NCBI GenBank assembly: GCA_012735195.1
Contig: JAAYIC010000077.1
Coordinates: forward strand, 10,471-74,470
Direction of reading: 5' to 3'
Length of the DNA: 64,000 bases
Source: Bacillota bacterium
GTDB lineage: Bacteria; Bacillota; UBA4882; UBA10575
Positions 3,010-43,229 of the stretch are shown here, piece by piece. The position numbers were made by a program, and so were the translations under genes. Each line of letters begins with the position of its first letter. Position 1 is the first letter of the stretch. A model generated the notes under the pieces. It saw only the letters and a program-made list of their open reading frames with translations. It was not told the DNA's origin and did not search any database.

Positions 3010-3786
3010 TTATTCCTCCTTTATATTAAGGTGATAAATAAATCTCAATCCTTCCAGGGTCAAGACGGGGTTGACAATCTGGATCATCTGCGACTCTTTG
3101 GCGATTATCCGGCAATAACCGCCGGTAGCCACCACCCGCGGCTGCCCGGCGTCCATCTCCGCAATCATGCGGCGAATCAACCCGTCCACCAGATCCGTGT
3201 AGCCATAGACCAGCCCCGATTGGATACTGGTCACGGGGTTTTTTCCAATGACCTGCGGCGGCTTTTGCAGTTCCACCCGGGGGAGTTTGGCGGCGTAATG
3301 AAAAAGGGCTTCTGCGGAGATCCCGATCCCGGGGGCGATTATTCCCCCCAGATACTCTGCTTCCGCATTAACTGCACAAAGCGTTGTTGCAGTGCCGAAA
3401 TCAACAATGATCACCGGCGTTCCATAAAGGCGTACTGCAGCCACGGCATTGGCCACCCGGTCCGCCCCCACCTCCCGGGGATTTTCATAACGGATAAAGA
3501 GGCCGGTGCGAATCCCCGGCCCGACCACCAACGGTTCACAGTGGAAATATGCCCGGGCCATTTCGATCAGCGCAGAGGTGAGCGGCGGGACAACGCTCGC
3601 CAAAACCACCGCGTCAACCTTGTTGGCGGGAAGGTTCTTGTTGGCAAAAAAGTCCATTAACAACAGGCCGTACTCATCGGCTGTTCGTTGTCGCTCCGTT
3701 GTCAGCCGGCAGTCGGCAAGGAGTTTTTCCCCGTCATAAACCCCCAGGAGAATCTGGGTATTTCCCGCATCCAAGACAAGAATCAT
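3010..3786 (-). CDS. coaX: Type III pantothenate kinase
   Basis: Internal start MILVLDAGNTQILLGVY... (the track ORF has a 34-codon non-homologous extension). ATGA overlap with the stop of the upstream gene at 3786. Blocks IIVDFGTATT and GGIIAPG are typical of CoaX. Confidence 0.85.
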   Translation of the reverse strand: MILVLDAGNTQILLGVYDGEKLLADCRLTTERQRTADEYGLLLMDFFANKNLPANKVDAVVLASVVPPLTSALIEMARAYFHCEPLVVGPGIRTGLFIRYENPREVGADRVANAVAAVRLYGTPVIIVDFGTATTLCAVNAEAEYLGGIIAPGIGISAEALFHYAAKLPRVELQKPPQVIGKNPVTSIQSGLVYGYTDLVDGLIRRMIAEMDAGQPRVVATGGYCRIIAKESQMIQIVNPVLTLEGLRFIYHLNIKEE

Positions 3787-4586
3787 CAGTAATCCTCCTT
3801 TTCTGCTGCCAACTCTTTCAGACCCGGATAAACAAAACCAATGGAATAATCGGCGGTATAAAGATGGGAAAAAAATTCCACTTGACAATCGAAAGCCTTT
3901 AAGCGGTTTTGCAAAAGATAAGCCAGGTGTTTCATGCCCGGCTTGGCCATCAGGCTATGGCCCAAATCAATCAGGTTCACGCCATGGCGGGAGAAATAAT
4001 TAATACTGTAACGGCTCATTTCCGAAGAGAGAACCAAATTACACCCGGCGGCCAGCCACTCTTCCCAGTCCTCCTTGTAAACAGGGAAAAATCCCGGACC
4101 GGCAACCACTGCCACTCTGGTGATCCGGGCGTTCAAGTCTCCGTTGTATGGAATGACGTTTACTTCCAGGACCCGTTGGCAACAGGTAAGCAATTCTTTT
4201 AAACTCAAATCCGTCATCCCAAAAACCGCATCACCCGCCGCCTCCAGATCCGAAAGGTTCAAAAGCCGGGCAAGGGTAATATTATTCCCTTCCGGCGCCC
4301 TATTCCAGGCGCTGTGCAGTTTATAGAGGCCCATCCCTTTTGCCGCCAGTTCCCCCGCGGCCTCCCCTTGCCAGGGATGGTGGGAAATCAGGAGTTCCAC
4401 GCCCTTTCTGGCGGCGGAGAGAATATTGGGTTCCGTGGGATCAACACAGACCCCGATCTTTTCCACCTTCTCCCGGCCTTCCGGCCTTACCTGATAGCCC
4501 GGGAGGTCGTAAGGGTCGGCGCTTTTTGCCGGGGCCAATTCTTCCAAAATGGAATCAAGTCTTCCCAATTCAATCAACGGGATCAC
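3786..4586 (-). CDS. Nif3-like dinuclear metal centre protein (GTP cyclohydrolase 1 type 2 homologue family)
   Basis: 266 aa with a GVCVDPT...LLISHHP metal-binding block and a C-terminal DLGHS block. GTG start 8 nt after GGAGG. Confidence 0.7.
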   Translation of the reverse strand: MIPLIELGRLDSILEELAPAKSADPYDLPGYQVRPEGREKVEKIGVCVDPTEPNILSAARKGVELLISHHPWQGEAAGELAAKGMGLYKLHSAWNRAPEGNNITLARLLNLSDLEAAGDAVFGMTDLSLKELLTCCQRVLEVNVIPYNGDLNARITRVAVVAGPGFFPVYKEDWEEWLAAGCNLVLSSEMSRYSINYFSRHGVNLIDLGHSLMAKPGMKHLAYLLQNRLKAFDCQVEFFSHLYTADYSIGFVYPGLKELAAEKEDY

Positions 4587-4745
4587 CCTCTTTGCCTCCG
4601 CACGTGCCTGGCCGACACGTGCAGACCCCCGGAACAGCCGGTCTTTTCCTTTTTATATTCTCATTCTCCCGCCGGTTCTCCTGCCGCCGCCCTATATTAT
4701 ACTCCTCCTTCCCCGGCGCCGGTAAAAAAAACCCCCGGAAGGATC

Positions 4746-4821
4746 GGTTATACCGCCGGGGGGTTAATTATACTGCCGGGAGGTTGTTTATACTACCGGA
4801 GGGTCAATCATGCGACCGGCG
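4746..4821. repeat. Four ~20-nt direct repeats, each with a TATAAT-like core on the minus strand
   Basis: Minus strand reads cgccggtcgcatgattgacc / ctccggtagtataaacaacc / tcccggcagtataattaacc / ccccggcggtataacc. Located between the M16 stop and the NIF3 start. Confidence 0.75.
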
Positions 4822-4936
4822 GGCAATTCTGTTCCCGGATGGGCCAGGTTGTTTCATGCTTACGCATGGTTTTAGCAAACAAAGATATCTGCACCGTCTG
4901 TCACGAATAGCACCGGGCGTGGCGGAATAATTTCCT

Positions 4937-6472
4937 ACTATTCAGGCTCGACCACGACCACCTCGCCGAAATCTTCCAGGCTCCTGTCGAACAGGGACGC
5001 GTTACCCACCACCACAATGACTGCTTCTTCCGGGCGCAGGTAACGCAGGTAACCGGCGGCGTAAACCATAAGGTGTCCGATTGGATCAATTCGGGATAAG
5101 CCAATAGATTCTCCCACCCGCCGCGGAAAAGCTCATAATAGGCCATCTTGTCGGCCAAGTCTGAATTGGAGGCCAAGTCAAAGAGAAAAGCAGTCCGGAT
5201 CTGGTTTTGTGCTTTCTTCAGTTCTTCTTCACTAACCAGTTCATTCTGCAAACGCTCGATCTCTTCATAAATGGCCTTTTCAAGCTCTTCTGTGGTATGT
5301 GGGTGCCGCGGCTTGGCATAAAGAACGAATAATGATGGATACCGCGTTCCGGGGTACCCGGTTAAGCCCTCTACCGTCAACGCTGTCCGGTCATCAACAA
5401 CCAAGCGTTTATATAACCGTGAACTTTGTCCCTCGGTGAACAGGGCCTTAATCATATCCAACACATAAATATCACGGTCAGGGTAGACCGGCTGCCGCCA
5501 GCCGATCATTAACCGCGGTTCGGCGTTGTATTCCACCAAAACACGGCGTTCTTCTTCCTGTTCGGGTTCTTCGGGGATCAACGCAGGCGGCCGTTCACGG
5601 GGTTCGAGAACCCCGAAATACCGTTCGACCAACTCCCGGGTTCTTTCCGGATCAACATCGCCCATTATGACCAGAACAGCCCGGTTGGGATGGTAATGGG
5701 TCTCCCAGAATTCCCATGCGGTCCGCATCCGGTAATTTGCGATCTCCTCCATGCTCCCGATTAGCGGACGCCCGTACGGGTGTTTTTGGAAAGCGGCGGC
5801 CAGAAAGCGCTCCTTCAGATAACCAATGGGTTGATCCTCATTACGCTGCCGCCGTTCTTCCTTAATCACCTCCACTTCTTCATAGAAAAAGCGAAAGACC
5901 GCATCCAGCAAGACATCTGCTTGAATGCGTATCCAGGCTTCAATCCTGTTCGCCGGGAGTGAAACCACATATGATGTATGGTCATAAGAAGTATAGGCGT
6001 TGTATTCCACCGCCCCCTGGGCGTTCATCAGATCGCGAAGTATATTGGGCTGAGCCGCTAACTGCGCCTCTTCCCGCGCCCGGAGAAATTCTGCATGCCG
6101 CCGGTTAATCTCCTCCTGCGGGGCGCCGGACTGCAAAGCCTCAAAGTAGGCGTTGGCAGCCTCTTCCACCCGGGCCAGCAACTCGTGCTCGCGGAAAGGA
6201 TCCAGGCTCCCCAGGATACTCGTGCCTTTAAAGGCCATATGTTCCACCATGTGGGCGATCCCACCCAATCCCGGGGGCTCATCAACACCGCCCGCATCAA
6301 ACATGAGATGGCAGTGAACAACCGGCGCCCAAGGGCGTCTGACCAGCAGAACCCGTAACCCGTTTTCCAGTTCAAACCTGTAGGTCTGCTCCGCCAGGCC
6401 GCTGCCGGCAACAGGCAAACTGACTAGCAGGAGCGCTGGGATGAGGAAGAGCAGCATTTTTTTCTTTGCCAT
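4937..6472 (-). pseudogene. M16 (pitrilysin/insulinase) family zinc peptidase with an apparent 1-nt frameshift near the 3' end
   Basis: HMVEHMAFKGT (HxxEH zinc motif). Likely start is MAKKKMLLFL... after GGAGGAG. After ...AYPELIQS the track frame becomes nonsense (DTLWFTPPVTCVTC...). Another frame continues as HLMVYAAGYLRYLRPEEAVIVVVGNASLFDRSLEDFGEVVVVEPE* with its stop at 4937-4939. Confidence 0.75.
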
Positions 6473-6625
6473 CAAGATCTCCTCCTTTCCGGGCACGCCG
6501 GGGAAGCGCACCCCACCTTTAAAACCCCCTCAACCCTTTCACTTATATATAGTCGTGATTTTTGCGAATTTGGTTCAATTTTTTCCAAACTGTATAATTT
6601 TTGCTAGCTCTTCAGTAAAAACAAA

Positions 6626-6658
6626 GGGCAGTTGAATAATTTCAAACTGCCCTGTTTT
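6626..6658. terminator. Hairpin terminator, bidirectional in appearance
   Basis: gggcagtt-N11-aactgccc, flanked by an A-run upstream and tgtttt downstream. Confidence 0.5.
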
Positions 6659-6661
6659 CCC

Positions 6662-6897
6662 GGAACAAACCATAAACTCCCGGGGAACACCAAGTTTAAA
6701 CGCGCATATTGAAGCCTTTCATTCGATTCTTGAAGATGATTGCTCAGCAGGTATCAGTTTATCAGCTATGCGGAAGCTTATGAACAAATCTCGCTGTATA
6801 TGGAATATTACAACCAGCCCGTCGCCATGGGAGCTTGAAGAACATGGTTCCAGAAAAATATTACCAGACTATTATCAGTAAATTCCATAAAACCTGA
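6662..6897 (+). mobile_element. Remnant of an IS3-family (rve/DDE integrase) transposase C-terminus, frameshifted
   Basis: Across three frames: INSRGTPSLNAHIEAFHSILEDDC / YQFISYAEAYEQISLYMEYYNQ / SLKNMVPEKYYQTII. This resembles the ...DNAxxESFxxxLKxE...YNxxRxHxSLgxxxPxxF end of IS3 OrfB proteins. No N-terminal part and no inverted repeats seen. Confidence 0.6.
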
Positions 6898-6929
6898 AAT
6901 CTTGTGGCATAATCTCCGGTTTTAGGGGG

Positions 6930-7574
6930 TCAAGGCGCAGTGTTGTAGCTCAAATGGGCCGCGGCGAATTTGGTCCCCAGGTTGGTCACAGCACGGGCTT
7001 TGACGGAAATGCGGTACCATTTATTGGGGGAAAGAAGGATATTGGAGAGAACGAATGCTTTCCATGTACCGGACCCGTTGTCGTAGATCCGCCCGACTTT
7101 CGCGCCGTCCGCGGCGGTTGGGGAAGCGGCTGTTTCGCAGTATTCGTCAGCCGGGCTGTGGTTCATTGCCGCCCGCCACTTGGCGCCGACGTACAGGTAG
7201 TTTTGGCTGTTGGTCTTGTTGGGGTCGCCGTATAATCTTTGCAAGGAACAACGCTCAAAAGAACCATCTTCCTGAGTATAGAACGCTGTTTCTTTCGGGC
7301 TGCCGAAGGCCTCGTAATCCAAATACTCTACGGGGGCACCGGCGGCGTTTGTAATAACTTTTGTGCTGCCCAGATGGTCCAGGAGGTAGTAGTAAAGGGC
7401 GCCGTTGATAAAAGCCGCAAGCTTCATATTCCCCAAATAAACACCTAATTCCTGCCGGGCAGGGGTGCCCAGATTTGCCTGGTCGGCGGTGTTGAAGGTC
7501 TCTTCGTAGACGGGTTGGGAGTCATGGTAGACATAGATGGTGGTCTTGCCGTCCTCGATCTTTTTTACCCGCAA
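6930..7574 (-). CDS. RHS/YD-repeat-like C-terminal fragment (N-terminally truncated; possibly non-functional)
   Basis: GKTTIYVYHD... and YYYLLDHLGSTKVITNAAGAPVEYLDYEAFGSP resemble the RHS repeat-associated core (YYYxxDHLGS...Y.PFG). In-frame TGA immediately upstream and a TTG pseudo-start. The tail domain is unassigned. Confidence 0.4.
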   Translation of the reverse strand: MRVKKIEDGKTTIYVYHDSQPVYEETFNTADQANLGTPARQELGVYLGNMKLAAFINGALYYYLLDHLGSTKVITNAAGAPVEYLDYEAFGSPKETAFYTQEDGSFERCSLQRLYGDPNKTNSQNYLYVGAKWRAAMNHSPADEYCETAASPTAADGAKVGRIYDNGSGTWKAFVLSNILLSPNKWYRISVKARAVTNLGTKFAAAHLSYNTAP

Positions 7575-7791
7575 ACCGGCTACCCATGAACCTGGTCATA
7601 AGTCATAAGCGGGCACGCATAGATTGCGGTCAAAAACCCGCCCAAGCAAGCTTGAGAACAATAAACCCCCTTTTGCTTCTTCCTTTGGTTTTGCCAACCA
7701 AAGAAACTGCAAAACGGGGGTGAGACCGTCTTTTGCTCAAACCCGGCCTGGCGGGCCTGGTGTTCAGGTGTTTATGAAATCATCTTCTTAT

Positions 7792-8637
7792 TTATTTCAG
7801 GAAAATATGATTTCCGATCCGTACCGTTACCTCCAGCCCGGAAGAGGCAAAAAACCGTAAGCCTTCAAGAGAGGAAAGGTTAGGGTTGTAGAAATAAAGC
7901 GCGCCTTTGCTGGGATCCCTTCCTGCCAATGCCTCCCTGGCCGCTCTTATGGCCGATTCTGTCGGCACGGTCCGCGGCAGTTTTGGCAGGCTGGAAAACT
8001 GCCCTTTTTGGTAGATCACTTCCCGGATAGTATTGGGGAACTCCCGGCTTTTTACCCTGTTCATCACGACCGCGCCCACGGCTACCTGACCTTCGTAGGG
8101 TTCTCCCGCCGCCTCGGCCGTAATTAGCCTGGCCAGCAAATCCAGGTCATTCCCGTAGGTTCCGGGGCCAAAATTGTACTGTAAAGAAACCCCCAAATAC
8201 GGCCGGAAAGAGCTTCTCTCTTCCCCGGTAACAGCGGCGGTTAACGCCGCGGGAAGCAATCCGATTTCCAATGCGGTGGAAAACCCGGGTAAAAACCGGT
8301 CTAAACGTAATTCCAAGCCGGCAATGACCTCCATCCGGTACTTAAAAGAGATCCCGGAAACGGCAAAAAGATCCCGCACACCCAGGCCGGCATAGGGGAT
8401 AAGCCACAATCCCTCTCGAATCCGGTAAAGCAATCCGGCGGATGGATACTTATCCGCCAGGTTATAACCTCCTCTTAGTCCCCACCGCCCGCTGGACCAC
8501 CACTGAACTCTGGCCCCGGCCAGAACAAACGCTTCTTCTTCCAACCTCCAGTCTGCTCCCAACTGGAAAGCGGCGGCCGGAGTCAACAGGCTAAAAACCC
8601 CTGCTATAACCAGAAAAATTAACAGCGGCTTCTTCAC
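7792..8637 (-). CDS. SleB/CwlJ-type cell wall (spore cortex) hydrolase with an N-terminal beta-rich domain
   Basis: Signal peptide. C-terminal LLARLITAEAAGEPYEGQVAVGAVVMNRV...VIYQKGQFS (Hydrolase_2 family). The ~150-aa N-domain has an amphipathic beta-strand pattern ending in LQYNF. Confidence 0.75.
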   Translation of the reverse strand: MKKPLLIFLVIAGVFSLLTPAAAFQLGADWRLEEEAFVLAGARVQWWSSGRWGLRGGYNLADKYPSAGLLYRIREGLWLIPYAGLGVRDLFAVSGISFKYRMEVIAGLELRLDRFLPGFSTALEIGLLPAALTAAVTGEERSSFRPYLGVSLQYNFGPGTYGNDLDLLARLITAEAAGEPYEGQVAVGAVVMNRVKSREFPNTIREVIYQKGQFSSLPKLPRTVPTESAIRAAREALAGRDPSKGALYFYNPNLSSLEGLRFFASSGLEVTVRIGNHIFLK

Positions 8638-8715
8638 AGGTAACCCTCCCCCCTCTTCCTTTACCTAATTATCCATGCTGTTCCACAATTCCTGCTGAAA
8701 GAGGGGGAAGAAGAT

Positions 8716-9471
8716 CTAAAAAATATAGGGAATCAACGGCGTTCCCAGAATAAGCTGAGTGACGTCTTCACCGGGGTCATAACAGTAGGCGAATTCCATG
8801 TTTACTCCGCCTCTTTCCAACCCGGGCTCCGGCTGGAAATAGGGGGAATGACCTTGCCACCTGCCGGAGGCCCCTGCCGGGCCGCCGGAGAGAACCTCCG
8901 CTTTCATCCTGGCAAAGATCTTCTCCGCCAATTCTCCGGCCTGGTCTTCACTGAGCCTCCCCGGGCGTTCCCCTCTTATGGCCAGTTTGAGCGGGAAATC
9001 TTCTTTTAGCGGAGCCAACGCCCGTTCCAGGCGACGAAGATAATGGCGTAAATCTGTGACCGGAACTGCAAACCCCATCAATCCGCAATGGGTCTCCCCG
9101 GTTCCATCCGCCTCTCTAACCGACTGCAAGGTCACTATAACCCGGCTGCCGTCGGGTAAGTGGCCGTCCAGGTTAACAAAGGTAAATGCCGGCTCCTCAC
9201 CGCTGTAAGGCGGGAAATCCGTCTGCAGGCGCAGCCGCCGTTGCAAAGCTTTTGCTTTTTTTTGGAGATCGGAAAGGGGGGTGAACCGTTCATCGATTAT
9301 ACTCCAGCCTTCGATCTCCATTTCCCCACCGGCAAGACCCGCGGCTTTCCAACCGGCGATTAACGGATGCTCACCTACTGGCGCCGGGCTGATATAGTCA
9401 ATGTGATTAAGGGAGAAGAGAAGGAGGAAGGAGAAAGAGAAAAAAAGCCGGTAAAAAAACCCCCTGAACAT
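8716..9471 (-). CDS. YwmB family protein (DUF1779)
   Basis: N-terminal anchor. C-terminal ...VNMEFAYCYDPGEDVTQLILGTPLIPYIF resembles the B. subtilis YwmB end (...GTPIVTTEY). ATG chosen 8 nt after GGAGG. Confidence 0.5.
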   Translation of the reverse strand: MFRGFFYRLFFSFSFLLLFSLNHIDYISPAPVGEHPLIAGWKAAGLAGGEMEIEGWSIIDERFTPLSDLQKKAKALQRRLRLQTDFPPYSGEEPAFTFVNLDGHLPDGSRVIVTLQSVREADGTGETHCGLMGFAVPVTDLRHYLRRLERALAPLKEDFPLKLAIRGERPGRLSEDQAGELAEKIFARMKAEVLSGGPAGASGRWQGHSPYFQPEPGLERGGVNMEFAYCYDPGEDVTQLILGTPLIPYIF

Positions 9472-9552: not shown

Positions 9553-10554
9553 TTATCGTGTGATGATCCTGAAGACCAGTTGCAGGAGGCGGTAAAGGAA
9601 AAAAGCCAGGCTGCCGGAGAAGAATGGCGTCAGGATCCAGGTAAGAACGATCTCCCAAAGTAAGAGGGAATCCACGGCCTTTTTCCCCCTGCTTAAGCCG
9701 ACACCGCCAACCGCCCCAACTATTGCGTGGGTGGTGGAAACCGGCAGTCCGGCGATGGTAAAGAAATGAACGACAACCGCGGCGACAAATTCCGCGGTCA
9801 GGGCGGTTACCGGGTTTAAACGGGTAATCTTCTTCCCTACGGTCATCATGACCTTTTCCCCCCAGACTAGGACACCGCAACCCATGATCATTCCCCCGGC
9901 AAAAGCCAGGAGAAGCGGCGGTACATCCAAGACCCCGGAAAGCACACCAGTGGCGTTGGCCACATCATTTGCCCCCCAACTGAAAGCCATATAGCACCCT
10001 GTGATGATCACCATCGCTTTGACTGTTTTTTCCGCCAGGTGGGAGTTGCCCGCCCGGAGCATGGTTTTTCCCAGCTTAAAAAAACGGCCAAAGCTAAAAA
10101 GGGCCATCGCCAGCAGAAAGGTGGCAACAGGCGTAAAAACCCACGCCAAGAAGATTCTCGTTGTTTCGCCCCAATTAATCAAAGAGTGCAGGCCTGCGGC
10201 TATTCCTCCTCCAATTAAGCCTCCGGTGACCGCATGGGAAGTGGAGACAGGCAGATGTAGGCCGGTGCAGATCAGAACCGTGAGGCCGGCCGCAGTCAAA
10301 GTGGAAAAAGCGATGGCATCTGCGTAAGCTCCCGGAAGGGAGGGGAGAGGAAGGATCCCTTCGCCCAAGGTTTTGACAACCCGGCCGCCCATGACTACCG
10401 TTCCCGCCAGCCCAAAAAGGGCGGCCAGGATCGCGCCCTGCCTGGGGGTACGCACTCCTGACCCCACAGCTGTTCCCAGGGAGTTGGCTGCATCATTTGC
10501 CCCGATGACCCAAGCCAGCAACAGCCCGGGTAAAATCAGAAGAACACCCGGCAT
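9553..10554 (-). CDS. Inorganic phosphate transporter, PiT family
   Basis: 333 aa, polytopic. Duplicated GANDAANSLGTAVGSG / GANDVANATG signature. Confidence 0.9.
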   Translation of the reverse strand: MPGVLLILPGLLLAWVIGANDAANSLGTAVGSGVRTPRQGAILAALFGLAGTVVMGGRVVKTLGEGILPLPSLPGAYADAIAFSTLTAAGLTVLICTGLHLPVSTSHAVTGGLIGGGIAAGLHSLINWGETTRIFLAWVFTPVATFLLAMALFSFGRFFKLGKTMLRAGNSHLAEKTVKAMVIITGCYMAFSWGANDVANATGVLSGVLDVPPLLLAFAGGMIMGCGVLVWGEKVMMTVGKKITRLNPVTALTAEFVAAVVVHFFTIAGLPVSTTHAIVGAVGGVGLSRGKKAVDSLLLWEIVLTWILTPFFSGSLAFFLYRLLQLVFRIITR

Positions 10555-31379: not shown

Positions 31380-31535
31380 ACGCCTTCCCCCCTTCTCCTT
31401 CTGTGCACAGTTGCCTGCTGTGCGTAGTTGCCATACATGTCTGATCCGTTCTTTTCTCTGTGTGTACCGGGCGCGCCCCTTATTACTTCTTCTATTCTTG
31501 ATTAAAAAAGAGTTTCCTTTTTCCTACCGTCATTT

Positions 31536-31955
31536 GCGTGCATGCATGCGAAAAACATGAAGCGACACCTCGCACCTCAACGTATATAAAACATCGCCAT
31601 CTACACGCCCACGTGCGAAAAACATGGTTATTCCCTATGTCCGGGTTCTTCGGCCGGGGTTCGCCATTTACGCGTGCCCTACGAAAAACATGAGTTTACG
31701 CCAAAGGGCTCCCTTCCGGCCTGGGCTGGTATATACGCGCGTGCGCGCGTAAGGAAAACAGAACATCGCTCTTGTTTTTCAATAAACCAAATGACGCCGC
31801 TGTTTACCGCACATAAGGAAAACACTGAAAGCGGCTACATCTTCATCTCGCGGTTTTGAGATGTTGCCATATGCGCGCGCAAGGAAAACAAGCCGGTTTG
31901 AGGGTGCAGGAACGCAGTAGTTTGGCGCTTTGCGCGCATGAAAGGAAAACAGGGG
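31536..31955. repeat. Seven-copy degenerate periodic array (period 61-70 bp)
   Basis: Core CGAAAAACATG at 31549, 31616 and 31682. Core AAGGAAAACA at 31751, 31815, 31881 and 31942. Each core is preceded by an alternating R-Y tract (for example 31729-31751, gtatatacgcgcgtgcgcgcgta). Confidence 0.8.
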
Positions 31956-33148: not shown

Positions 33149-33352
33149 TAATTTCCAAAAAATGGCGACAAAGAGAGCATGACGGCAAAGATCAATAAAA
33201 TAATAACATAATTTTCGCTTCTCCGGTCTCCCGTCTCTTTTGCCAAGTCATTTTTTGCAATATAATAGATTATAATATCAACCAATAGTATTATATTAGA
33301 CCAAGCATAGCGCAGGAATTACCAATGAATATCGTTGCAGTTGGGTGATGAA

Positions 33353-36300
33353 ATGGAAAAAACAGTTGTTGCCGGAGAAAAAACGAATCTTAACGGGTTC
33401 GCGCCTGCCTTCCCGTTCCCATCCGAAGTTACAACAGGCGAAAAAGGGGCTTCCGCTCCCCTGAGCAACCTGCAGCAAATTCCGCCGATCGAAACCGGGA
33501 GGTACCTCACGTATATCAGAAACCGTCAGGTCGCCTCCTGGGAGGATATCCCCCGGACAGTAAGAAGAGAGGTCCTCCTCCGGGCCTGCCGGGAACGGGG
33601 GCGCAGTCACCCGCTGCTGATGACTTTTGAAGATTTTGCCCGCCCTTTCCGGTTTTTGAAGAACAAAACCCTGACCGGTTTTTATAACTTCTATAACAAC
33701 CTATGCCGGGGTCCCCGCGGCATGGTTATTAGATATATCTGTGAGGATCTGAATATTGAGACCGCCATGGAAGACTGGATCGCTTATCTCACCGCCGGCG
33801 CCACCGTGCCTTCATGGCAGATCCTTCCGGAACAAGTTCTGAAAGACCTGCTGATCATGGCCGCCGCCGCCCTGGGCTACAGTAATCCCCGGATGATGTC
33901 AACGGAGGATCTGAAGACCGGGATCGACTTCTTGCAGGGTCTTTCCTTGTATAGTTTTATCATCCGTTATGCCGGCAATACCACCGCGGATCTCCGGGCC
34001 TTGGACCGCCTCTGCGACGAATATGGGATCCCGCCCCTTTCTTTTACGGAATGGCTCGTCCTTGCCGGGCGCCCCAATTTCCGCTGGCAACGGTTTCCCC
34101 CTCCGTATTTACACCGTTTGTTATACCTCCTGGCAGAAGAGGCCGGAAAAGGTACCCCACGGATGCTGAAGTATAAAGATTTTTGCCGGCCGCTGGCCGC
34201 CCTGAACAACCGGGACCTTACCGGTTTGTACCACTGCTACTCCCGGTTAAAAAAGGATAAAAACATCAGCACCGTGGAGTTTATCTGCGATACGGCCGGC
34301 ATCCCCGGTTATAACCTGTCGCAATGGCTGGCAACCGGCGCCCCCGGCTCCCGCATCTCCTGGGAATCCCTTTCTCCCCAGTTAATAAAGGAGGCTCTTT
34401 GGAAGGCCGCGGGGGAATTAGGGTTAAAAAACCCGCGTTTAATGGATTCCACCGACTTCTTCCGGCGATTTTCTTTTTTAAACGGAAAAACCCTTTCCGG
34501 GCTGTACGCCCGGATCAAAACCTACCCCAACTTCTGGGATATGTTTGGGATCGAACGGCCAAGCATTGAGGATTGGTTGGAACTGATTTGTTCCTCCCCC
34601 CAAATACGCTGGGAGAAAGTCCCCGTAAAGATCCAGCGGGAGATTATCCTCAAAGCCGCAGCAGAAGCCGGCCTGCCGCATCCCGGTTCGTTAAAGGCCC
34701 GTGATTTTATCGCCAGACCTTTCCAATTTTTGGGCGGCAAAAACCTGAGCGGCCTCTATTTTCATTATGCGGCAAAGAAAAAACAAAACACCCTTTCCGT
34801 ACCTGAGTATATCCTGAGTAGCCTGCAAATCCCGTCAGCCGGGATTAACCTGAAAACCGGCAGGATAAATACGATCGACAGCCTGAACCACCGGAAGTAT
34901 TTTGACAGCAAAGCCAATTGCCGGGCCTTTCTCAACTCCTATCTGCAACACTTTTCCCTGAAAAGCCTGGTTAAAAAGGATTCCATGCTCCGTAACGCCA
35001 AAAAAGCCGGTATCTACAAAAAAGGCCTTCTCTCCCTGGTAGGTCCCATGAATCAAAGAGAATACCTGGATTTTCTTTATGAATTACTAAAAAACACGCC
35101 CCTGGATGCTTTGGGCCTGCCGGAACCCGGCCGCGGTGATTACCGGCTGTTACGAAACCATCTCTATGCTTTGGCGGGAATTAAGGAACAAGAAGAAAAA
35201 GAGGAAAAAGCAAAGAGGATCCCCCCGGCCGGCCCTAGCCCGGTAAAAATGCGAACAAAAGCGGCTGTCCTGCGTGAACTCCAGCAGCACAGGGAGATTC
35301 TCGCCTTGAAAGAAAAGAAATACCACCGGGTTGATTGTGTCTGTCTTTCTACCGACGGGAACGAGGCGGTTTTCCGGGTACCCGCCCCCTTTTTGCCCGG
35401 CGACATTTTAACCGCCCCCGACGGTGAAGAGTTCAGAGTGGGCGAATGCCATCCGGAAACCTCCGGTGACGGGTATGTCATTGAAGTGGAAGCGGTTTTG
35501 CCGCTCCCGGCGGAAAAAATCGCCGGCATCCAAAGGCTGGTGAAAGATTCCAACGAGGCGATCCTCGGCGCCCACCTGGAAAAATTGGCGGAACAGGTGG
35601 AAAACGGGACAGTTTCGCCCCTGCTCGCCGGGGTTTTAGGGTTGCGTAAAGAAAAACTGCTTAACCCGGAACGGCTACAGATCATCCCAAAAAGGGCTTA
35701 CTTTAATAAAGGCCTTGCCAAAAATAAAGCACAGACCGAAGCATTGAACCTGGCTTTGGCCCTTGACGGCGACACCCATACCCTGGTTGTGGTTCAGGGC
35801 TCGCCGGGTACCGGGAAAACCACTTTAATTACGGAGATTGCCCTCCAGTCTTATCTCAAGGGGGAGAATATCCTGATCCTGGCCAAGACCAACGTGGCGG
35901 TGGATAACATCCTGGAGAAGCTGATGGATAAAAAGATCCGTGTTTTACGTTCCGGCAATAATCTGCACTGGAAGTCCAACCTCCCCGGTGTACATACGGT
36001 TTCCACAGCCAACTCCCTCCACCTGGCTGCCATGGAAAGAGGGAATAAAGTCATTCTCGGCACGCCCCTCGGGTTCTACCTGGACCGGAACCTCCCACCG
36101 GCCGAGTATGACCTCCTGATTATTGACGAGGCCTCCCAGATGGATATCCCGGAAACCCTTTTTTCGCTGGGTTTTGCCAAAAAATGTGTTATGATCGGCG
36201 ATCACCTGCAGATCCCCCCCTACCCGATCGCCCAGGAAATCCTGGCGGAATATAACTCCCGGCTCACCCCGGCCGAAAAGGAAAAACTCCAGATGAGCCT

Positions 36301-37018
36301 TTTTGAACGGCTCATTGCCGACGGGAACAGGTTTAACCGGGTCTTCCTTGATATTAATTACCGCACCGCCCACCCGGAGATGGTCTCCTTTATCTCCGAC
36401 CTGATCTACGACGGCCGGCTCTCGCCCAATACCGATTCGGATTATTACAAACTCTCGCCGGCCGGCCGGAGAAAATTCTTCCCTTATCCCGTTGAGATCG
36501 TTGATACCGCCGGGATCTCCGACCCTAAACTGCGGGCGGAGACGGAGATTAATTCCACCTATTACAATCTGACCGAGGCCATGCTCTGTGTCCGCCAGGT
36601 CCTGAACCTGCTGGAAAACGGCGAAAAATTAACGGATATCGCTGTGATCACCCCCTACAAAGCCCAGGTGGAAAAGGTTAAAGAGATGTTCAGGGAGAAT
36701 TTTAACTACTTCTCCGTGGCAGAAAGCGCCTTCCAGGAGTTCATCGAGAACAGGATCTACACCATCGATTCCTTTCAAGGCCGGGAAGAAGAGATCGTCA
36801 TTATCAGCTGGGTACGGAGTAACTACGAGCCCGGTCAACCCCGGAAAACCGGCTTTTTAAAGGACTTCCGCCGGGTGAACGTCTCCCTTTCCCGGGCGAG
36901 AAAAAAAATGATCCTGATCGGAGATTATGAAACCCTGACCAATTCGGATAATCTTGTTGTCCGTTACATCTTCCGCCAGATCAAGAACCTCCGGGCGGAA
37001 CAGAAGATTGTTTTGTAA
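33353..37018 (+). CDS. Large SF1 (Upf1/DNA2/NAM7-like, AAA_11/AAA_12) helicase with five N-terminal ~90-aa tandem repeats
   Basis: Helicase motifs VVVQGSPGTGKTT (Walker A, ~35798-35824), LIIDEASQM, INYRTAHP, VITPYKAQV, TIDSFQGREEEIVIISWVRSN and RVNVSLSRARKKMILIGD. The N-terminal repeats are anchored by W at approx. aa 69/161/251/343/426 of the track ORF. Start codon uncertain (TTG 33335 or ATG 33353). Confidence 0.8.
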   Translation: MEKTVVAGEKTNLNGFAPAFPFPSEVTTGEKGASAPLSNLQQIPPIETGRYLTYIRNRQVASWEDIPRTVRREVLLRACRERGRSHPLLMTFEDFARPFRFLKNKTLTGFYNFYNNLCRGPRGMVIRYICEDLNIETAMEDWIAYLTAGATVPSWQILPEQVLKDLLIMAAAALGYSNPRMMSTEDLKTGIDFLQGLSLYSFIIRYAGNTTADLRALDRLCDEYGIPPLSFTEWLVLAGRPNFRWQRFPPPYLHRLLYLLAEEAGKGTPRMLKYKDFCRPLAALNNRDLTGLYHCYSRLKKDKNISTVEFICDTAGIPGYNLSQWLATGAPGSRISWESLSPQLIKEALWKAAGELGLKNPRLMDSTDFFRRFSFLNGKTLSGLYARIKTYPNFWDMFGIERPSIEDWLELICSSPQIRWEKVPVKIQREIILKAAAEAGLPHPGSLKARDFIARPFQFLGGKNLSGLYFHYAAKKKQNTLSVPEYILSSLQIPSAGINLKTGRINTIDSLNHRKYFDSKANCRAFLNSYLQHFSLKSLVKKDSMLRNAKKAGIYKKGLLSLVGPMNQREYLDFLYELLKNTPLDALGLPEPGRGDYRLLRNHLYALAGIKEQEEKEEKAKRIPPAGPSPVKMRTKAAVLRELQQHREILALKEKKYHRVDCVCLSTDGNEAVFRVPAPFLPGDILTAPDGEEFRVGECHPETSGDGYVIEVEAVLPLPAEKIAGIQRLVKDSNEAILGAHLEKLAEQVENGTVSPLLAGVLGLRKEKLLNPERLQIIPKRAYFNKGLAKNKAQTEALNLALALDGDTHTLVVVQGSPGTGKTTLITEIALQSYLKGENILILAKTNVAVDNILEKLMDKKIRVLRSGNNLHWKSNLPGVHTVSTANSLHLAAMERGNKVILGTPLGFYLDRNLPPAEYDLLIIDEASQMDIPETLFSLGFAKKCVMIGDHLQIPPYPIAQEILAEYNSRLTPAEKEKLQMSLFERLIADGNRFNRVFLDINYRTAHPEMVSFISDLIYDGRLSPNTDSDYYKLSPAGRRKFFPYPVEIVDTAGISDPKLRAETEINSTYYNLTEAMLCVRQVLNLLENGEKLTDIAVITPYKAQVEKVKEMFRENFNYFSVAESAFQEFIENRIYTIDSFQGREEEIVIISWVRSNYEPGQPRKTGFLKDFRRVNVSLSRARKKMILIGDYETLTNSDNLVVRYIFRQIKNLRAEQKIVL

Positions 37019-37445
37019 ACAGCCGCATTTCCGGCACTCCCCTGCATATCCCCGGCTCATCCCTTCTTCCCCCCGGTTCGTGTAATGAAAGTGAGGAGAT
37101 TCCGTCTTCCACCGTACCGGAAATGACCGGTGTATCCGGGAAGGGGCCAAGCCTGCTCCTTTTTCTGCCGGCCCTATCCGGGAAAATCCGGGATGAAGAC
37201 TTTGCGCGTGCCTGCTAACGGCCTAAAGCGAAGCCCCTTTGCCCCGGGTTCTTCCCGGTCGGAACAGCGGCGGGCGGTGAAAGAGAGCCGGATCATTATC
37301 AATACCTTAACCGGTGAGGTTATTTGCTTATAACAAATTCTGTGGTAAAATGACAGTTAGTGGCTTGGCGTGCGTTGGCCGCAAAGTACAACGCCGGGCA
37401 AGTTTTCACTGGAGAAATTTCTGCTGGAGGTAGGAGGGATATTTT

Positions 37446-40534: not shown

Positions 40535-42028
40535 CTAATCTATGTTGCTTCTGCGCTTGACGCCCACTGCCATAAAAATACCCGGCGAATCCCAATTTTC
40601 CGCAATAACGCCTATGCGTAACCAAAGATCCCTCTGCAAACGCCAGACCGCCTCGAGCCGCTGCGCAGACCACCCGGGATTACCGGTTAAAGCCAAAGCC
40701 AGCTCCAGTTCGTCCAGATCCCATTCCAGGCCGGCCCGCCAGTAGCTCTTTGCCAGTTCGGTCCGGCCGTCAAGCAGAAAGACCAACGGGTACCAGGTTA
40801 CAAAGGCACGTACATGAGGGGAGAGTTGTACGTTATCAGAAACCCCCGTCATCAGGACGGGAGTGGCCACGGGTCCTAACCCCCCGGCAAGAGCGGCATC
40901 GAAAAATGTGCCGGACCCGGCCCACAGTTCCCTTTTTATCCCGATAAAATAGGTCTTCGGGGCCCGGGCGGAAACCTCCAGATCGCCCGCGTCACCCAGA
41001 GGCATGGTAAGACGCACGGCAGGGTTTAGTTCTCTCCCGGACGCGGATCCGCTACTGATCAAGCCGGTCTCAAGGATCAGTTCCTTATCGGGGCTCTGCG
41101 GAGAATGGGGGGCAAGGAGTCTCAATCCATCCAGGGAAGCCATGGGGATAACCGGCATCTCCGCCAATTGTTTCAGCCTAAACGGAACAGCACTCAACAC
41201 CAGGGCAAAAACCCGCTGTTCTTTCAACCCCGCAGTAAAAAGCCTTCTTTCTTTCCGATCCATCGTCCGGCGCATGAAGGCAATGATCTCCGGCTTTCCC
41301 CCGGCAGAGTTGACAGTGGTGGCCAGGGCAGCCTTTTCACCGTGATCCTGGTTTTCCCGCAGAAAAGAGACCTTCGTCTCCACCCGGCCGGTTTCTCTTT
41401 GGATAAAAACCGGGGTAATCTCCAGAAGGTAATTCTCGTCCTTATCATAGTATTCCGGATAAATAGCGCCGGTTTTCCACTTTACCGGCCGGCCGGGTAC
41501 GGCGATTATCCATGCCTCGGATGCCCCTTCATAACTACTGGATTCCGGTACACCGGGGTGTTTCATAAACCCATTTTCCACTAAAAAACGGACCCCGTTC
41601 TCGCCCCGGAGAATCTGGGGAGTTGCCACTAAACGGTAACTCTCCGCCGGTGTGCCGGTTCTGACTTCTCCGGAAAACACCCAGCCCCAGGTGGAGGTGG
41701 TTCCCAATTCCACGATCCTGAGGGAATATAAGATGAAGAGGGTGGCCGCATCGGCCAGGTTTTCCCTGAGAGCGGCCAAAACCTCTTCATCGGTTACCGC
41801 CGGGGCGGAAAGAAAATAGATCTCTTCTTCTTCATCATAGATCAGCCATCCATTAAAACCGGCGGGCATCTCCAGAACTCCGGGAGAAATAAACCCTAAC
41901 GGGATAAAGACAAGATCCGGCGTTATCTCTGTCTTCTCCGGGCCTTCAACCGCCCCGGCACCTGTGACCGGTAGCGTAATTAAGGCTAAAGCCAACACCA
42001 ACCCGCAGAGCCGGTGGTTTTTAATCAT
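40535..42028 (-). CDS. Secreted beta-rich protein of unknown function (497 aa), last gene of the secretin locus
   Basis: Start MIKNHRLCGLVLALALITLPVTGAGA (signal peptide) inside an ATGATTAA overlap with the upstream stop. The track ORF carries a 46-codon spurious extension. The C-terminal ~170 aa show alternating amphipathic strands (YFIGIKRELWAG..., VTWYPLVFLL, WRAGLEWDLDELELALALTG, LWLRIGVIAENW). Confidence 0.6.
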   Translation of the reverse strand: MIKNHRLCGLVLALALITLPVTGAGAVEGPEKTEITPDLVFIPLGFISPGVLEMPAGFNGWLIYDEEEEIYFLSAPAVTDEEVLAALRENLADAATLFILYSLRIVELGTTSTWGWVFSGEVRTGTPAESYRLVATPQILRGENGVRFLVENGFMKHPGVPESSSYEGASEAWIIAVPGRPVKWKTGAIYPEYYDKDENYLLEITPVFIQRETGRVETKVSFLRENQDHGEKAALATTVNSAGGKPEIIAFMRRTMDRKERRLFTAGLKEQRVFALVLSAVPFRLKQLAEMPVIPMASLDGLRLLAPHSPQSPDKELILETGLISSGSASGRELNPAVRLTMPLGDAGDLEVSARAPKTYFIGIKRELWAGSGTFFDAALAGGLGPVATPVLMTGVSDNVQLSPHVRAFVTWYPLVFLLDGRTELAKSYWRAGLEWDLDELELALALTGNPGWSAQRLEAVWRLQRDLWLRIGVIAENWDSPGIFMAVGVKRRSNID

Positions 42029-43229
42029 TTTCCGCCACAACCTCCGCTGAAATAAAAACCAGTAATTCACTTTCCTTCTGCTCCTCCCTGCCTTCCCGGA
42101 AGAGAAGGCGCAAAAGCGGAATCCTCCCAAGAACCGGGGTTTGCGATGTTCTGTTCCTGTCTTCAACTTGGGTCAAGCCGCTGACCAGAACGGTCTGACC
42201 GGGAATAAGGCGTAGCGTTGACCCGAACTCCGCCATTCTTACCACCGGTTCACTGCCGTTATTGTCCACGAAATAGCTGACCGTCTGGGTCATCTCCAAC
42301 TCGATACGGTCTTCGAAGACCCGGGGAGTAACCTTCAGACCCGTGCCGGCCTCAATCTTTTCGATCTGGTCGTAATTCTCATACACATCCAAAATCAAGA
42401 CCCGTTGTTCCCCGACAAAAAGGTCGGCGGTCTTCCCGTCCGCCACCTGAATCACGGGGTCGGCATGGATTTTAGCTGCGCCTTCCTTCTCCAAGGCCCG
42501 GATCTTGGTATGCAAAAGGCCAAAAATATCGGTTTCAATACCAATAGCTCCAGGGGCCAGATCCAAAATTGTCGTCCAGTCCGGTTTTTTTGCCAGACTG
42601 GAAGTAAACTCCCAGTTAAAGAGGTCGATTCCCCATTCCTTGATCACTTCTGTCTGTACTTCGGAGACTAGTGCCTTCACCCTTACCTGCGCCCGGGGGG
42701 TGTCGATCTTTTTGAAATCCGCAATGATCCGCTCCTTTAACCCACGGGGCGCAGTGATAGCCGCCACGTTTGCCTCCTGGTCAAAACGGACGTTTTGGCG
42801 GAAAGCATCAGGGAGCAACGCTTCTACAGTAGAGACCTTTACGTTCTTAAAGAAGAAAAATTCTGTTTCGGCGAGATCCGCAAAAACCCTGTTTCGTGGG
42901 TCAGCCAGCCCTACCAGATAATAATCGTCGACCTTACGGTAGCTAAACCCCCCTCCTGCCAGCATCATCTGGAGCGCTTTCTCTAAAGGTGTGTCCTCCA
43001 GCTCCAAGGTGACCGTTCCCGTAATGTTTTCATCCATTACTATATTTACTCCCGTCTGGAGGGCTACCTCCCGCAAGGCTTCCCGAAGTTCCATCTCAAA
43101 AAAGACAATTGTGACTAAAGGCTCCGCTTCCTGTTCTGCCCGGACCGACAAGGGTGTTGTCGCCGGTCCGGGGAGGAAAAAGATGAAGAAAAAAGCGCAG
43201 ATCAGGAAGATCATCCGCCGACTCAACAT
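42021..43229 (-). CDS. Minimal secretin (type II/III secretion system secretin-family protein), 402 aa
   Basis: Signal peptide. N0-like block (FFEMELREALREVALQTGVNIVMDENITGTVTLELEDTPLEKALQMML), N1-like block (FFFFKNVKVSTVEALL...ITAPRGLKERIIADFKKID). Secretin core QVRVKALVSEVQTEV ... TPVLGRIPLLRLLFRE ... ELLVFISAEVV. Confidence 0.7.
   Translation of the reverse strand: MLSRRMIFLICAFFFIFFLPGPATTPLSVRAEQEAEPLVTIVFFEMELREALREVALQTGVNIVMDENITGTVTLELEDTPLEKALQMMLAGGGFSYRKVDDYYLVGLADPRNRVFADLAETEFFFFKNVKVSTVEALLPDAFRQNVRFDQEANVAAITAPRGLKERIIADFKKIDTPRAQVRVKALVSEVQTEVIKEWGIDLFNWEFTSSLAKKPDWTTILDLAPGAIGIETDIFGLLHTKIRALEKEGAAKIHADPVIQVADGKTADLFVGEQRVLILDVYENYDQIEKIEAGTGLKVTPRVFEDRIELEMTQTVSYFVDNNGSEPVVRMAEFGSTLRLIPGQTVLVSGLTQVEDRNRTSQTPVLGRIPLLRLLFREGREEQKESELLVFISAEVVAEND

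Follow-up and report, generated by a model that had tools for sequence, protein, structure and literature searches.

We analysed a 64,000-nucleotide (nt) stretch of DNA from a Bacillota bacterium (GTDB lineage Bacteria; Bacillota; UBA4882; UBA10575; assembly GCA_012735195.1, contig JAAYIC010000077.1, positions 10,471 to 74,470 of the forward strand), referred to here as the window. One gene in it encodes a superfamily 1 (SF1) helicase behind a long N-terminal extension that contains an array of tandem repeats. We favor the reading, with a probability of roughly 0.55, that this protein is a vertically inherited 5′–3′ motor targeted by its repeat array to DNA or the transcription apparatus. The motor is of a known kind, and the N-terminal module is the new part: it appears to be an undescribed helical repeat family of ~90 amino acids (aa), the W-repeat, that occurs in ~130 protein clusters, where its preferred fusion partners are sigma-70 factors, helix-turn-helix (HTH) regulators, and SF1B helicases.

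An intact SF1B helicase core follows five tandem repeats

The C-terminal half of the protein carries the full AAA_11/AAA_12 motif set that a first-pass annotation, made from the letters of the window, had assigned to ~560 aa; the Pfam-defined core is ~430 aa, or ~575 aa when aa 646–789 are included. Both Pfam families are found on aa 791–1192 (AAA_11, E = 9e-26, 91.6 bits; AAA_12, E = 5e-44, 150.7 bits), and both exceed the gathering cut-off, which is 27 bits for each. An alignment of the family shows no variation at the SF1 motif residues in any of its 23 members: Walker A GxGKT (G819–T823), DE at 925–926, GDHxQ at 949–953 (motif III), YR at 1003–1004, QG at 1142–1143, and R1181, with the arginine fingers of motifs IV and VI present. 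We conclude that, judged by its motifs, the protein is a catalytically intact Upf1/IGHMBP2-like SF1B helicase. The solved structures closest by sequence to this half are those of human IGHMBP2 (4b3f, E = 7e-38), Upf1/NAM7, DNA2, and Sen1, and the nearest relatives outside the family are prokaryotic IGHMBP2-family helicases of ~640 aa that are 28 to 34% identical over the core. As its characterised relatives all do (IGHMBP2, Upf1, Sen1, DNA2), the motor would translocate 5′ to 3′ on single-stranded nucleic acid. The segment just before Walker A (aa 646–789) probably corresponds to the beta-barrel (1B) and stalk seen in Upf1/IGHMBP2-like helicases, given its position and the presence of PF21138 (1B domain) in the nearest ~640-aa relatives; PF21138 has no Pfam match in the window helicase itself. 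Of note, one NCBI protein (P0163, 507 aa, on a 980-kb contig) matches the helicase half alone, at 58% identity, which leaves three options: a truncated gene call, a pseudogene, or a natural version lacking the repeats.

Ahead of the ~575-aa motor stands an extension of ~640 aa composed of repeats, a basic helical domain, and a charged linker (Table 1). BLASTP and Pfam bear out the first-pass description of five N-terminal tandem repeats followed by an SF1B core: the repeats are 80 to 92 aa each and span aa 61–497 (given earlier as ~66–505). In fragment-versus-protein BLASTP the copies begin at aa 63, 155, 245, 337, and 420 and are 25 to 45% identical to one another, with E values down to 1e-15, confirming an internal sequence similarity far above chance. 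The repeat pattern proposed at first pass fits the consensus sequences derived from 70 and from 424 repeats, and the leading Trp is 99% conserved across the 424 units, which come from all module-bearing proteins. In the family alignment, IPPIETGRYLTYI aligns to ‘IPxVSxxEWIxYI’ of R0, an extra N-terminal sixth copy that is complete in the distant orthologues P0006–P0023. By this alignment, the array is ancestrally one of six copies, of which the window’s subclade retains only the R0 tail.

Mean pairwise identity among orthologues is 46 to 57% for the repeats, 64% for the middle domain, and 68% for the helicase core. The identity at each repeat position looks like the result of purifying selection on every copy, not of diversification. 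The middle domain (aa 498–613), for which no Pfam or PDB match was found, is the best-conserved section of the N-terminal extension. An AlphaFold2 model of aa 1–613, built from a 15-sequence alignment, has a mean predicted local distance difference test score (pLDDT) of 81, rising to ~90 inside the repeats. Each repeat is predicted to fold into some five helices with a very small beta-bridge, and aa 1–42 and 498–518 are disordered in the model.

Table 1. Segments of the helicase gene and its upstream region, in window coordinates (pI, isoelectric point)
Feature	Position	Strand	Basis and remarks
Upstream intergenic region	33149..33352	+	AT-rich, 204 nt, 34% GC; composition
Complete coding sequence	33353..37018	+	1,221 aa plus stop codon
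N-terminus, aa 1–42	33353..33478	+	Poorly conserved, predicted disordered; pLDDT <50, not alignable to distant orthologues
Remnant (last helix) of ancestral sixth repeat R0, aa 43–60	33479..33532	+	Alignment; helix predicted at aa 48–57
Repeat 1, aa 61–152	33533..33808	+	BLASTP, repeat alignment, model; pLDDT ~90
Repeat 2, aa 153–242	33809..34078	+	BLASTP, repeat alignment, model
Repeat 3, aa 243–334	34079..34354	+	BLASTP, repeat alignment, model
Repeat 4, aa 335–417	34355..34603	+	Shortened in the window’s subclade; BLASTP, family alignment, model
Repeat 5, aa 418–497	34604..34843	+	Lacks the last helix; BLASTP, family alignment, model
Middle domain, aa 498–613	34844..35191	+	Basic (pI 9.9), mostly helical, family-specific; helices predicted at aa 520–608
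Charged linker, aa 614–645	35192..35287	+	Poorly conserved; mean pairwise identity 35%, length varies
Segment before Walker A, aa 646–789	35288..35719	+	Putative beta-barrel (1B)/stalk; position and relatives
SF1B helicase core, RecA-like domains 1A and 2A, aa 790–1221	35720..37015	+	AAA_11/AAA_12; every motif intact

The repeat matches no named family or fold

The first-pass annotation could place the module in no named family, and this held in every collection that we searched. On the whole protein at E ≤ 1, Pfam places no family on the repeat region. Among 70 repeat units compared with Pfam-A at E ≤ 10, the best match is HTH_26 (E = 0.08, in 3 of the 70), which is not significant. NCBIfam and PHROGs contain no match to the repeat. 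A profile of the repeat against PDB sequences gave nothing significant (best E = 0.19), the sub-threshold matches including a few XRE- and transposase-type HTH proteins, all at E > 0.1. Named helical repeat and HTH families (TPR, Sel1, HEAT, PPR, ankyrin, TALE, mTERF, HNH_repeat, and XRE/Tnp HTH) have no significant Pfam or PDB profile match to it. Structure comparison with Foldseek was equally empty: a single-repeat model of moderate confidence (pLDDT 73) gave a best E of 3.6 against the PDB, and the 613-aa model, used as a multi-repeat query without cropping to a single high-confidence unit, reached no better than E = 0.45 (TM ≤ 0.17) against the PDB and E = 0.39 against BFVD. Two further ideas about the origin of the repeat were rejected, namely an internal duplication (first versus second half, hhalign probability 5.6%) and homology to the sigma-like C-terminal tail described below (hhalign probability 0.3%).

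The module is found ahead of sigma-70 domains, HTH regulators, and other SF1B helicases

We searched a repeat-unit profile against 1.84 billion representative proteins and found the module in 131 other proteins (clusters) at E ≤ 1e-3, 84 of them at E ≤ 1e-10. Each carries 1 to 7 tandem copies by hidden Markov model (HMM); the library search matched as many as 15 stretches per protein. Pfam was run on 70 of the 131 as a census of partner domains. The sigma partners were Sigma70_r4 (12 proteins), Sigma70_r3 (7), Sigma70_r4_2 (5), and Sigma70_r2 (4); the others included GntR (3), HTH_36 (3), HTH_3 (3), AAA_11/AAA_12 (2), and DnaJ (2).

The largest class has 3 to 7 copies ahead of sigma-70 domains or of a sigma-region-4-like C-terminal tail, which an HMM built from the recurrent tail detects in 35 proteins. 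Four members (P0051, P0057, P0065, and P0094) have 3 to 5 repeats followed by sigma-70 regions 3 and 4, and P0051 and P0100 have a marginal region 2 match besides. These proteins, all uncharacterised and from uncultured organisms, share with the window protein the N-terminal placement of ~90-aa modules; they differ in their C-terminal effector, which is sigma-70 regions 2, 3, and 4 and not a helicase. At one such locus (L033), two adjacent overlapping genes (3293–6004 and 6001–8769) encode ~900-aa sigma-70-region-4 proteins, at least one of which (P0065) has a W-repeat array, and a tyrosine recombinase gene (9576–10475) lies ~800 nt downstream of the pair.

A second family of repeat-plus-SF1B helicases comprises P0080, P0092, and P0119. 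P0080 is NQU17408.1 of Candidatus Saganbacteria, and its gene sits in a housekeeping context (LepA, HemN, UvrA, MnmA). The plan is the same as in the window protein, with W-repeats N-terminal and an SF1B AAA_11/AAA_12 core C-terminal, and the cores are 30 to 34% identical (E = 1e-55 to 1e-62). The Saganbacteria-type proteins belong to another phylum, have 3 to 5 repeats of ~100 aa, and contain a middle domain that is not detectably homologous; a domain common to both families, as the motifs ‘NPKTGRL’ here and ‘NPxGRLF’ there might suggest, found no support in BLASTP or the family HMM.

The helicase gene is syntenic and vertically inherited

The gene had been labeled an orphan, which is not borne out. 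When the N-terminal 770 aa were used as query against 5.8 billion proteins, only 23 clusters (at 90% identity) were recovered, all of them 1,191 to 1,314 aa long and of the same architecture, and a scan of one genome per species found orthologues in 18 GTDB species. The carriers include Caldicoprobacter oshimai DSM 21659, C. algeriensis TH7C1, Caldicoprobacterales metagenome-assembled genomes, and digester-derived Clostridia and Bacillota metagenome-assembled genomes. At most loci, the gene lies in one block (HD - ABC_tran - CbiQ - CbiM on the minus strand / helicase / DUF378 / SASP). In the window’s subclade (80 to 85% identity), the conserved order is M29 peptidase / helicase / ferredoxin and 2-oxoacid:ferredoxin oxidoreductase (POR) operon; in a few lineages the surroundings are different, and metabolic in every case. 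The helicase gene co-diverges with the flanking ABC ATPase gene: pairwise identities of the two are 96/97, 91/93, 83/86, 78/80, and ~62/62% (Spearman 0.47, p = 3e-4). We conclude that the gene is chromosomal, inherited vertically, and specific to the lineage of Caldicoprobacter and allied thermophilic anaerobic Clostridia.

Most Caldicoprobacter-type loci also have a gene for a 65- to 67-aa DUF378 membrane protein on the same strand, 55 to 85 nt downstream of the helicase (L001 11979–12176, L003 11967–12167, and L005 7938–8141; 80 to 95% mutually identical). This gene is missing downstream of the helicase in the window’s subclade.

Within the window, the open reading frame (ORF) extends from 33335 to 37018 (+), and its start is likely the ATG at 33353 because close orthologues open with MEKPV.... 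As first noted, the gene is alone among housekeeping genes, with an M29 aminopeptidase gene upstream and the ferredoxin and POR operon downstream; the wider set of neighbors comprises the M29 peptidase, ferredoxin/POR subunits, an acyltransferase, a DUF4130 protein, and a response regulator. The AT-rich region upstream, first put at ~190 nt, is slightly longer (Table 1) and contrasts with a GC content of ~52% in both the gene and the window. This spacer presumably contains the promoter. No sigma-70 match was obtained at consensus-scan thresholds, although hexamers resembling TATAAT can be seen in it.

Discussion

We propose that the SF1B core would use ATP to move 5′ to 3′ on single-stranded RNA or DNA and in doing so unwind duplexes or strip off proteins, and that the repeat array and the basic domain, joined to the motor by a flexible charged linker, would form a targeting platform that chooses where the motor loads. 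Since the module stands N-terminal to sigma-70, sigma-region-4-like, and GntR/HTH proteins elsewhere, its target is most likely DNA or the transcription machinery. Such an enzyme could act as a transcription- or chromosome-associated helicase, for example, in a Sen1-like manner, by clearing R-loops, RNA:DNA hybrids, or stalled complexes.

Beside known helicases, the motor is unremarkable. IGHMBP2-family helicases (TIGR00376, ~640 aa) have the same AAA_11/AAA_12 motor with all helicase motifs, but the window protein, at 229 bits, falls short of the 348.9-bit cut-off and is therefore not a TIGR00376 equivalog; unlike that family, it has the ~640-aa N-terminal extension and lacks R3H and zinc-finger C-terminal domains. 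Sen1/senataxin likewise has its Upf1-like core (5mzn, E = 9e-25 to the core of the window protein) behind a long alpha-helical N-terminal region, which targets the motor to the transcription machinery. Sen1 is eukaryotic, and its N-terminal region has no similarity in sequence or fold to that of the window protein. We nonetheless favor Sen1 as the functional analogy, with the fusion partners of the module suggesting a possible role in transcription.

Most of the uncertainty in the proposal of a targeted, transcription-associated motor lies in what the repeats bind, and several observations weigh against it. Binding of nucleic acid or RNA polymerase by the repeat is suggested only indirectly, by its fusion partners, and searches of the repeat itself recovered no HTH or other DNA-binding family. 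The first-pass guess of a DNA-binding or HTH-like unit, as in homing-endonuclease or phage-associated proteins, gains indirect support from the sigma-70, GntR/HTH, and helicase fusions; neither an HTH nor a homing-endonuclease family was detected in the repeat. The pI of the repeats ranges from 4.6 to 10.1, so they are not uniformly basic. No conserved functional gene partner accompanies the helicase, the DUF378 protein being the sole recurrent same-strand neighbor, and the beta-barrel and stalk assignment of aa 646–789 is purely positional. Regulation by the SOS response was considered and rejected: no GAAC-N4-GTTC box (≤1 mismatch) occurs within 300 nt upstream at the window locus or 20 orthologous loci, and a LexA/Cheo box is absent from the spacer in the window and from the regions upstream of the 20 orthologues. 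Finally, the module also occurs in proteins of other kinds. Two metagenomic proteins (P0037 and P0041) combine repeat periods of ~110 to 120 aa with signal-peptide- or signal-anchor-like N-termini, and five module-bearing giants (P0040, P0086, P0106, P0108, and P0152) reach 5.7 to 7.3 kaa. Such carriers speak against a module that solely binds DNA, and they better fit a generic protein-interaction repeat.

The main rival, possible if rather doubtful, is that the array is a generic protein–protein scaffold (TPR-, Sel1-, or ankyrin-like) that recruits or regulates the helicase without touching nucleic acid, in which case the sigma and HTH fusions would reflect binding of regulatory partners (anti-sigma-like control) and not DNA binding. 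The signal-anchor-like and giant carriers, the mixed net charge over the repeats, and the failure to find a DNA-binding family all agree with a scaffold, as do the only weak Foldseek neighbors, which are alpha-solenoids (HEAT, ARM, Sel1, PPR), none of them significant. What speaks against a scaffold is that the partners of promiscuous interaction repeats are usually more varied, whereas those of the W-repeat are strongly skewed to nucleic-acid and transcription proteins (sigma-70, GntR, several HTH families, SF1 helicases), and that a strongly conserved basic domain directly follows the array. A role in RNA metabolism, on ribosomes, tRNA, or mRNA as for eukaryotic IGHMBP2 and Upf1, with the array binding structured RNA or ribonucleoprotein, seems improbable to us. 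In its favor, IGHMBP2 and Upf1/NAM7 are the nearest relatives with a solved structure and a name, and RNA reading is common among helical repeat arrays, PPR and Pumilio among them, but the sigma-70, GntR, and HTH fusions indicate DNA and transcription over translation, and no ribosome- or RNA-processing-related neighbor is conserved. We regard as similarly speculative the idea that the W-repeat is a modular nucleic-acid-reading array like TALE, PPR, or mTERF, in which successive copies contact successive stretches of DNA or RNA. Repeat positions would then be conserved between orthologues because each reads a conserved target, sigma fusions would extend or re-specify promoter recognition, and SF1B fusions would load the motor at defined sites.

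Because large single-gene helicase fusions are frequently defence genes, the first-pass annotation had suggested a defence or mobile-DNA factor. This suggestion is not supported, since the homologues are syntenic across the lineage, the observation named beforehand as refuting it; they are chromosomal genes that co-diverge with the ABC ATPase gene, and the GC content is host-like. A single-gene anti-phage helicase akin to Mokosh MkoA/MkoC, Hhe, or ProA, with the repeats sensing phage components, is in our judgment very unlikely. PADLOC does report strong matches to MkoA (PDLC03920, E = 2.2e-78) and MkoC (4e-33) and weak ones to Hhe, ProA, PDC-S37, and the PLuB helicase, but all of them are confined to the generic helicase core (aa ~790–1217). 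The MkoA match covers aa 893–1204 only, in the C-terminal third of the profile, and Hhe (NF042953, 32 bits versus 2000) and ProA (NF058533, 52 versus 1500) fall far below the NCBIfam equivalog cut-offs. Mokosh proteins differ from the window protein in their N-terminus and work with a PLD nuclease (MkoB, or an MkoC-type fusion); no PLD nuclease was found in the window protein, its neighbors in the window, or the orthologous loci. Nor do the syntenic position over 18 species, the co-divergence with a neighboring gene, and the purifying conservation of every repeat resemble an island gene as for Mokosh; the window gene is vertically inherited and core-like. No integrase, restriction-modification, nuclease, phage, or other defence gene was called beside the helicase at any examined orthologous locus. 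Strong PADLOC helicase matches on a large stand-alone helicase fusion thus need not mean a defence gene. A mobile or homing-endonuclease-related gene recently inserted between housekeeping genes is hardly credible. The stand-alone gene and its AT-rich upstream spacer would suit an insertion, and the repeat layout superficially resembles homing-endonuclease-associated repeats. However, a check for flanking att-like repeats found none that is credible (the best candidate, of 22 nt, has 82% identity, and one of its copies falls within the M29 gene), the protein has no integrase, transposase, or endonuclease domain, and the GC content of the gene equals that of the host. No relative of the N-terminal half of the protein turned up among 50,697 phage genomes, 72,556 plasmids, and 2.9 million IMG/VR contigs or in PHROGs, and the insertion context is unchanged among orthologues at 80 to 85% protein identity.

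To our knowledge, Upf1/IGHMBP2-like helicases have almost no assigned function in prokaryotes, and a literature search on Caldicoprobacter helicases and on bacterial Upf1-like helicases with N-terminal repeats returned nothing relevant. The pairing of this module with sigma-70 factors and SF1B helicases is absent from the literature that we searched. Defining the binding partner of the module would annotate a small dark-matter domain family, explain the unusually long sigma factors of uncultured bacteria, and clarify what directs a bacterial Upf1/IGHMBP2-like helicase to its target.

Other features of the window

Three further regions of the window drew our attention. Between the genes for an HGSNAT-like acyltransferase (−) and the M29 peptidase (+), a 640-nt intergenic region contains seven copies of a ~20-nt motif at 61- to 67-nt spacing (31528–31951), each consisting of a GC-rich stretch followed by GAAAAACA(TG) or AAGGAAAACA. 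A CRISPR array was considered here and rejected because the conservation is too loose. The 427-nt non-coding gap from the helicase stop codon to the ferredoxin gene (37019–37445, 54% GC) may contain a leader or a regulatory RNA of the POR operon, of which the ferredoxin gene is the first. Rfam, run on the whole window, reported only two tRNAs and nothing in either of these two regions. On the minus strand, a 543-aa ORF (40535–42166) has no Pfam match. Unannotated ORFs at the matching position of one orthologous locus (L006) flank a secretin gene, which suggests a pilus or secretion cluster in this region, possibly that of a diderm Bacillota lineage.

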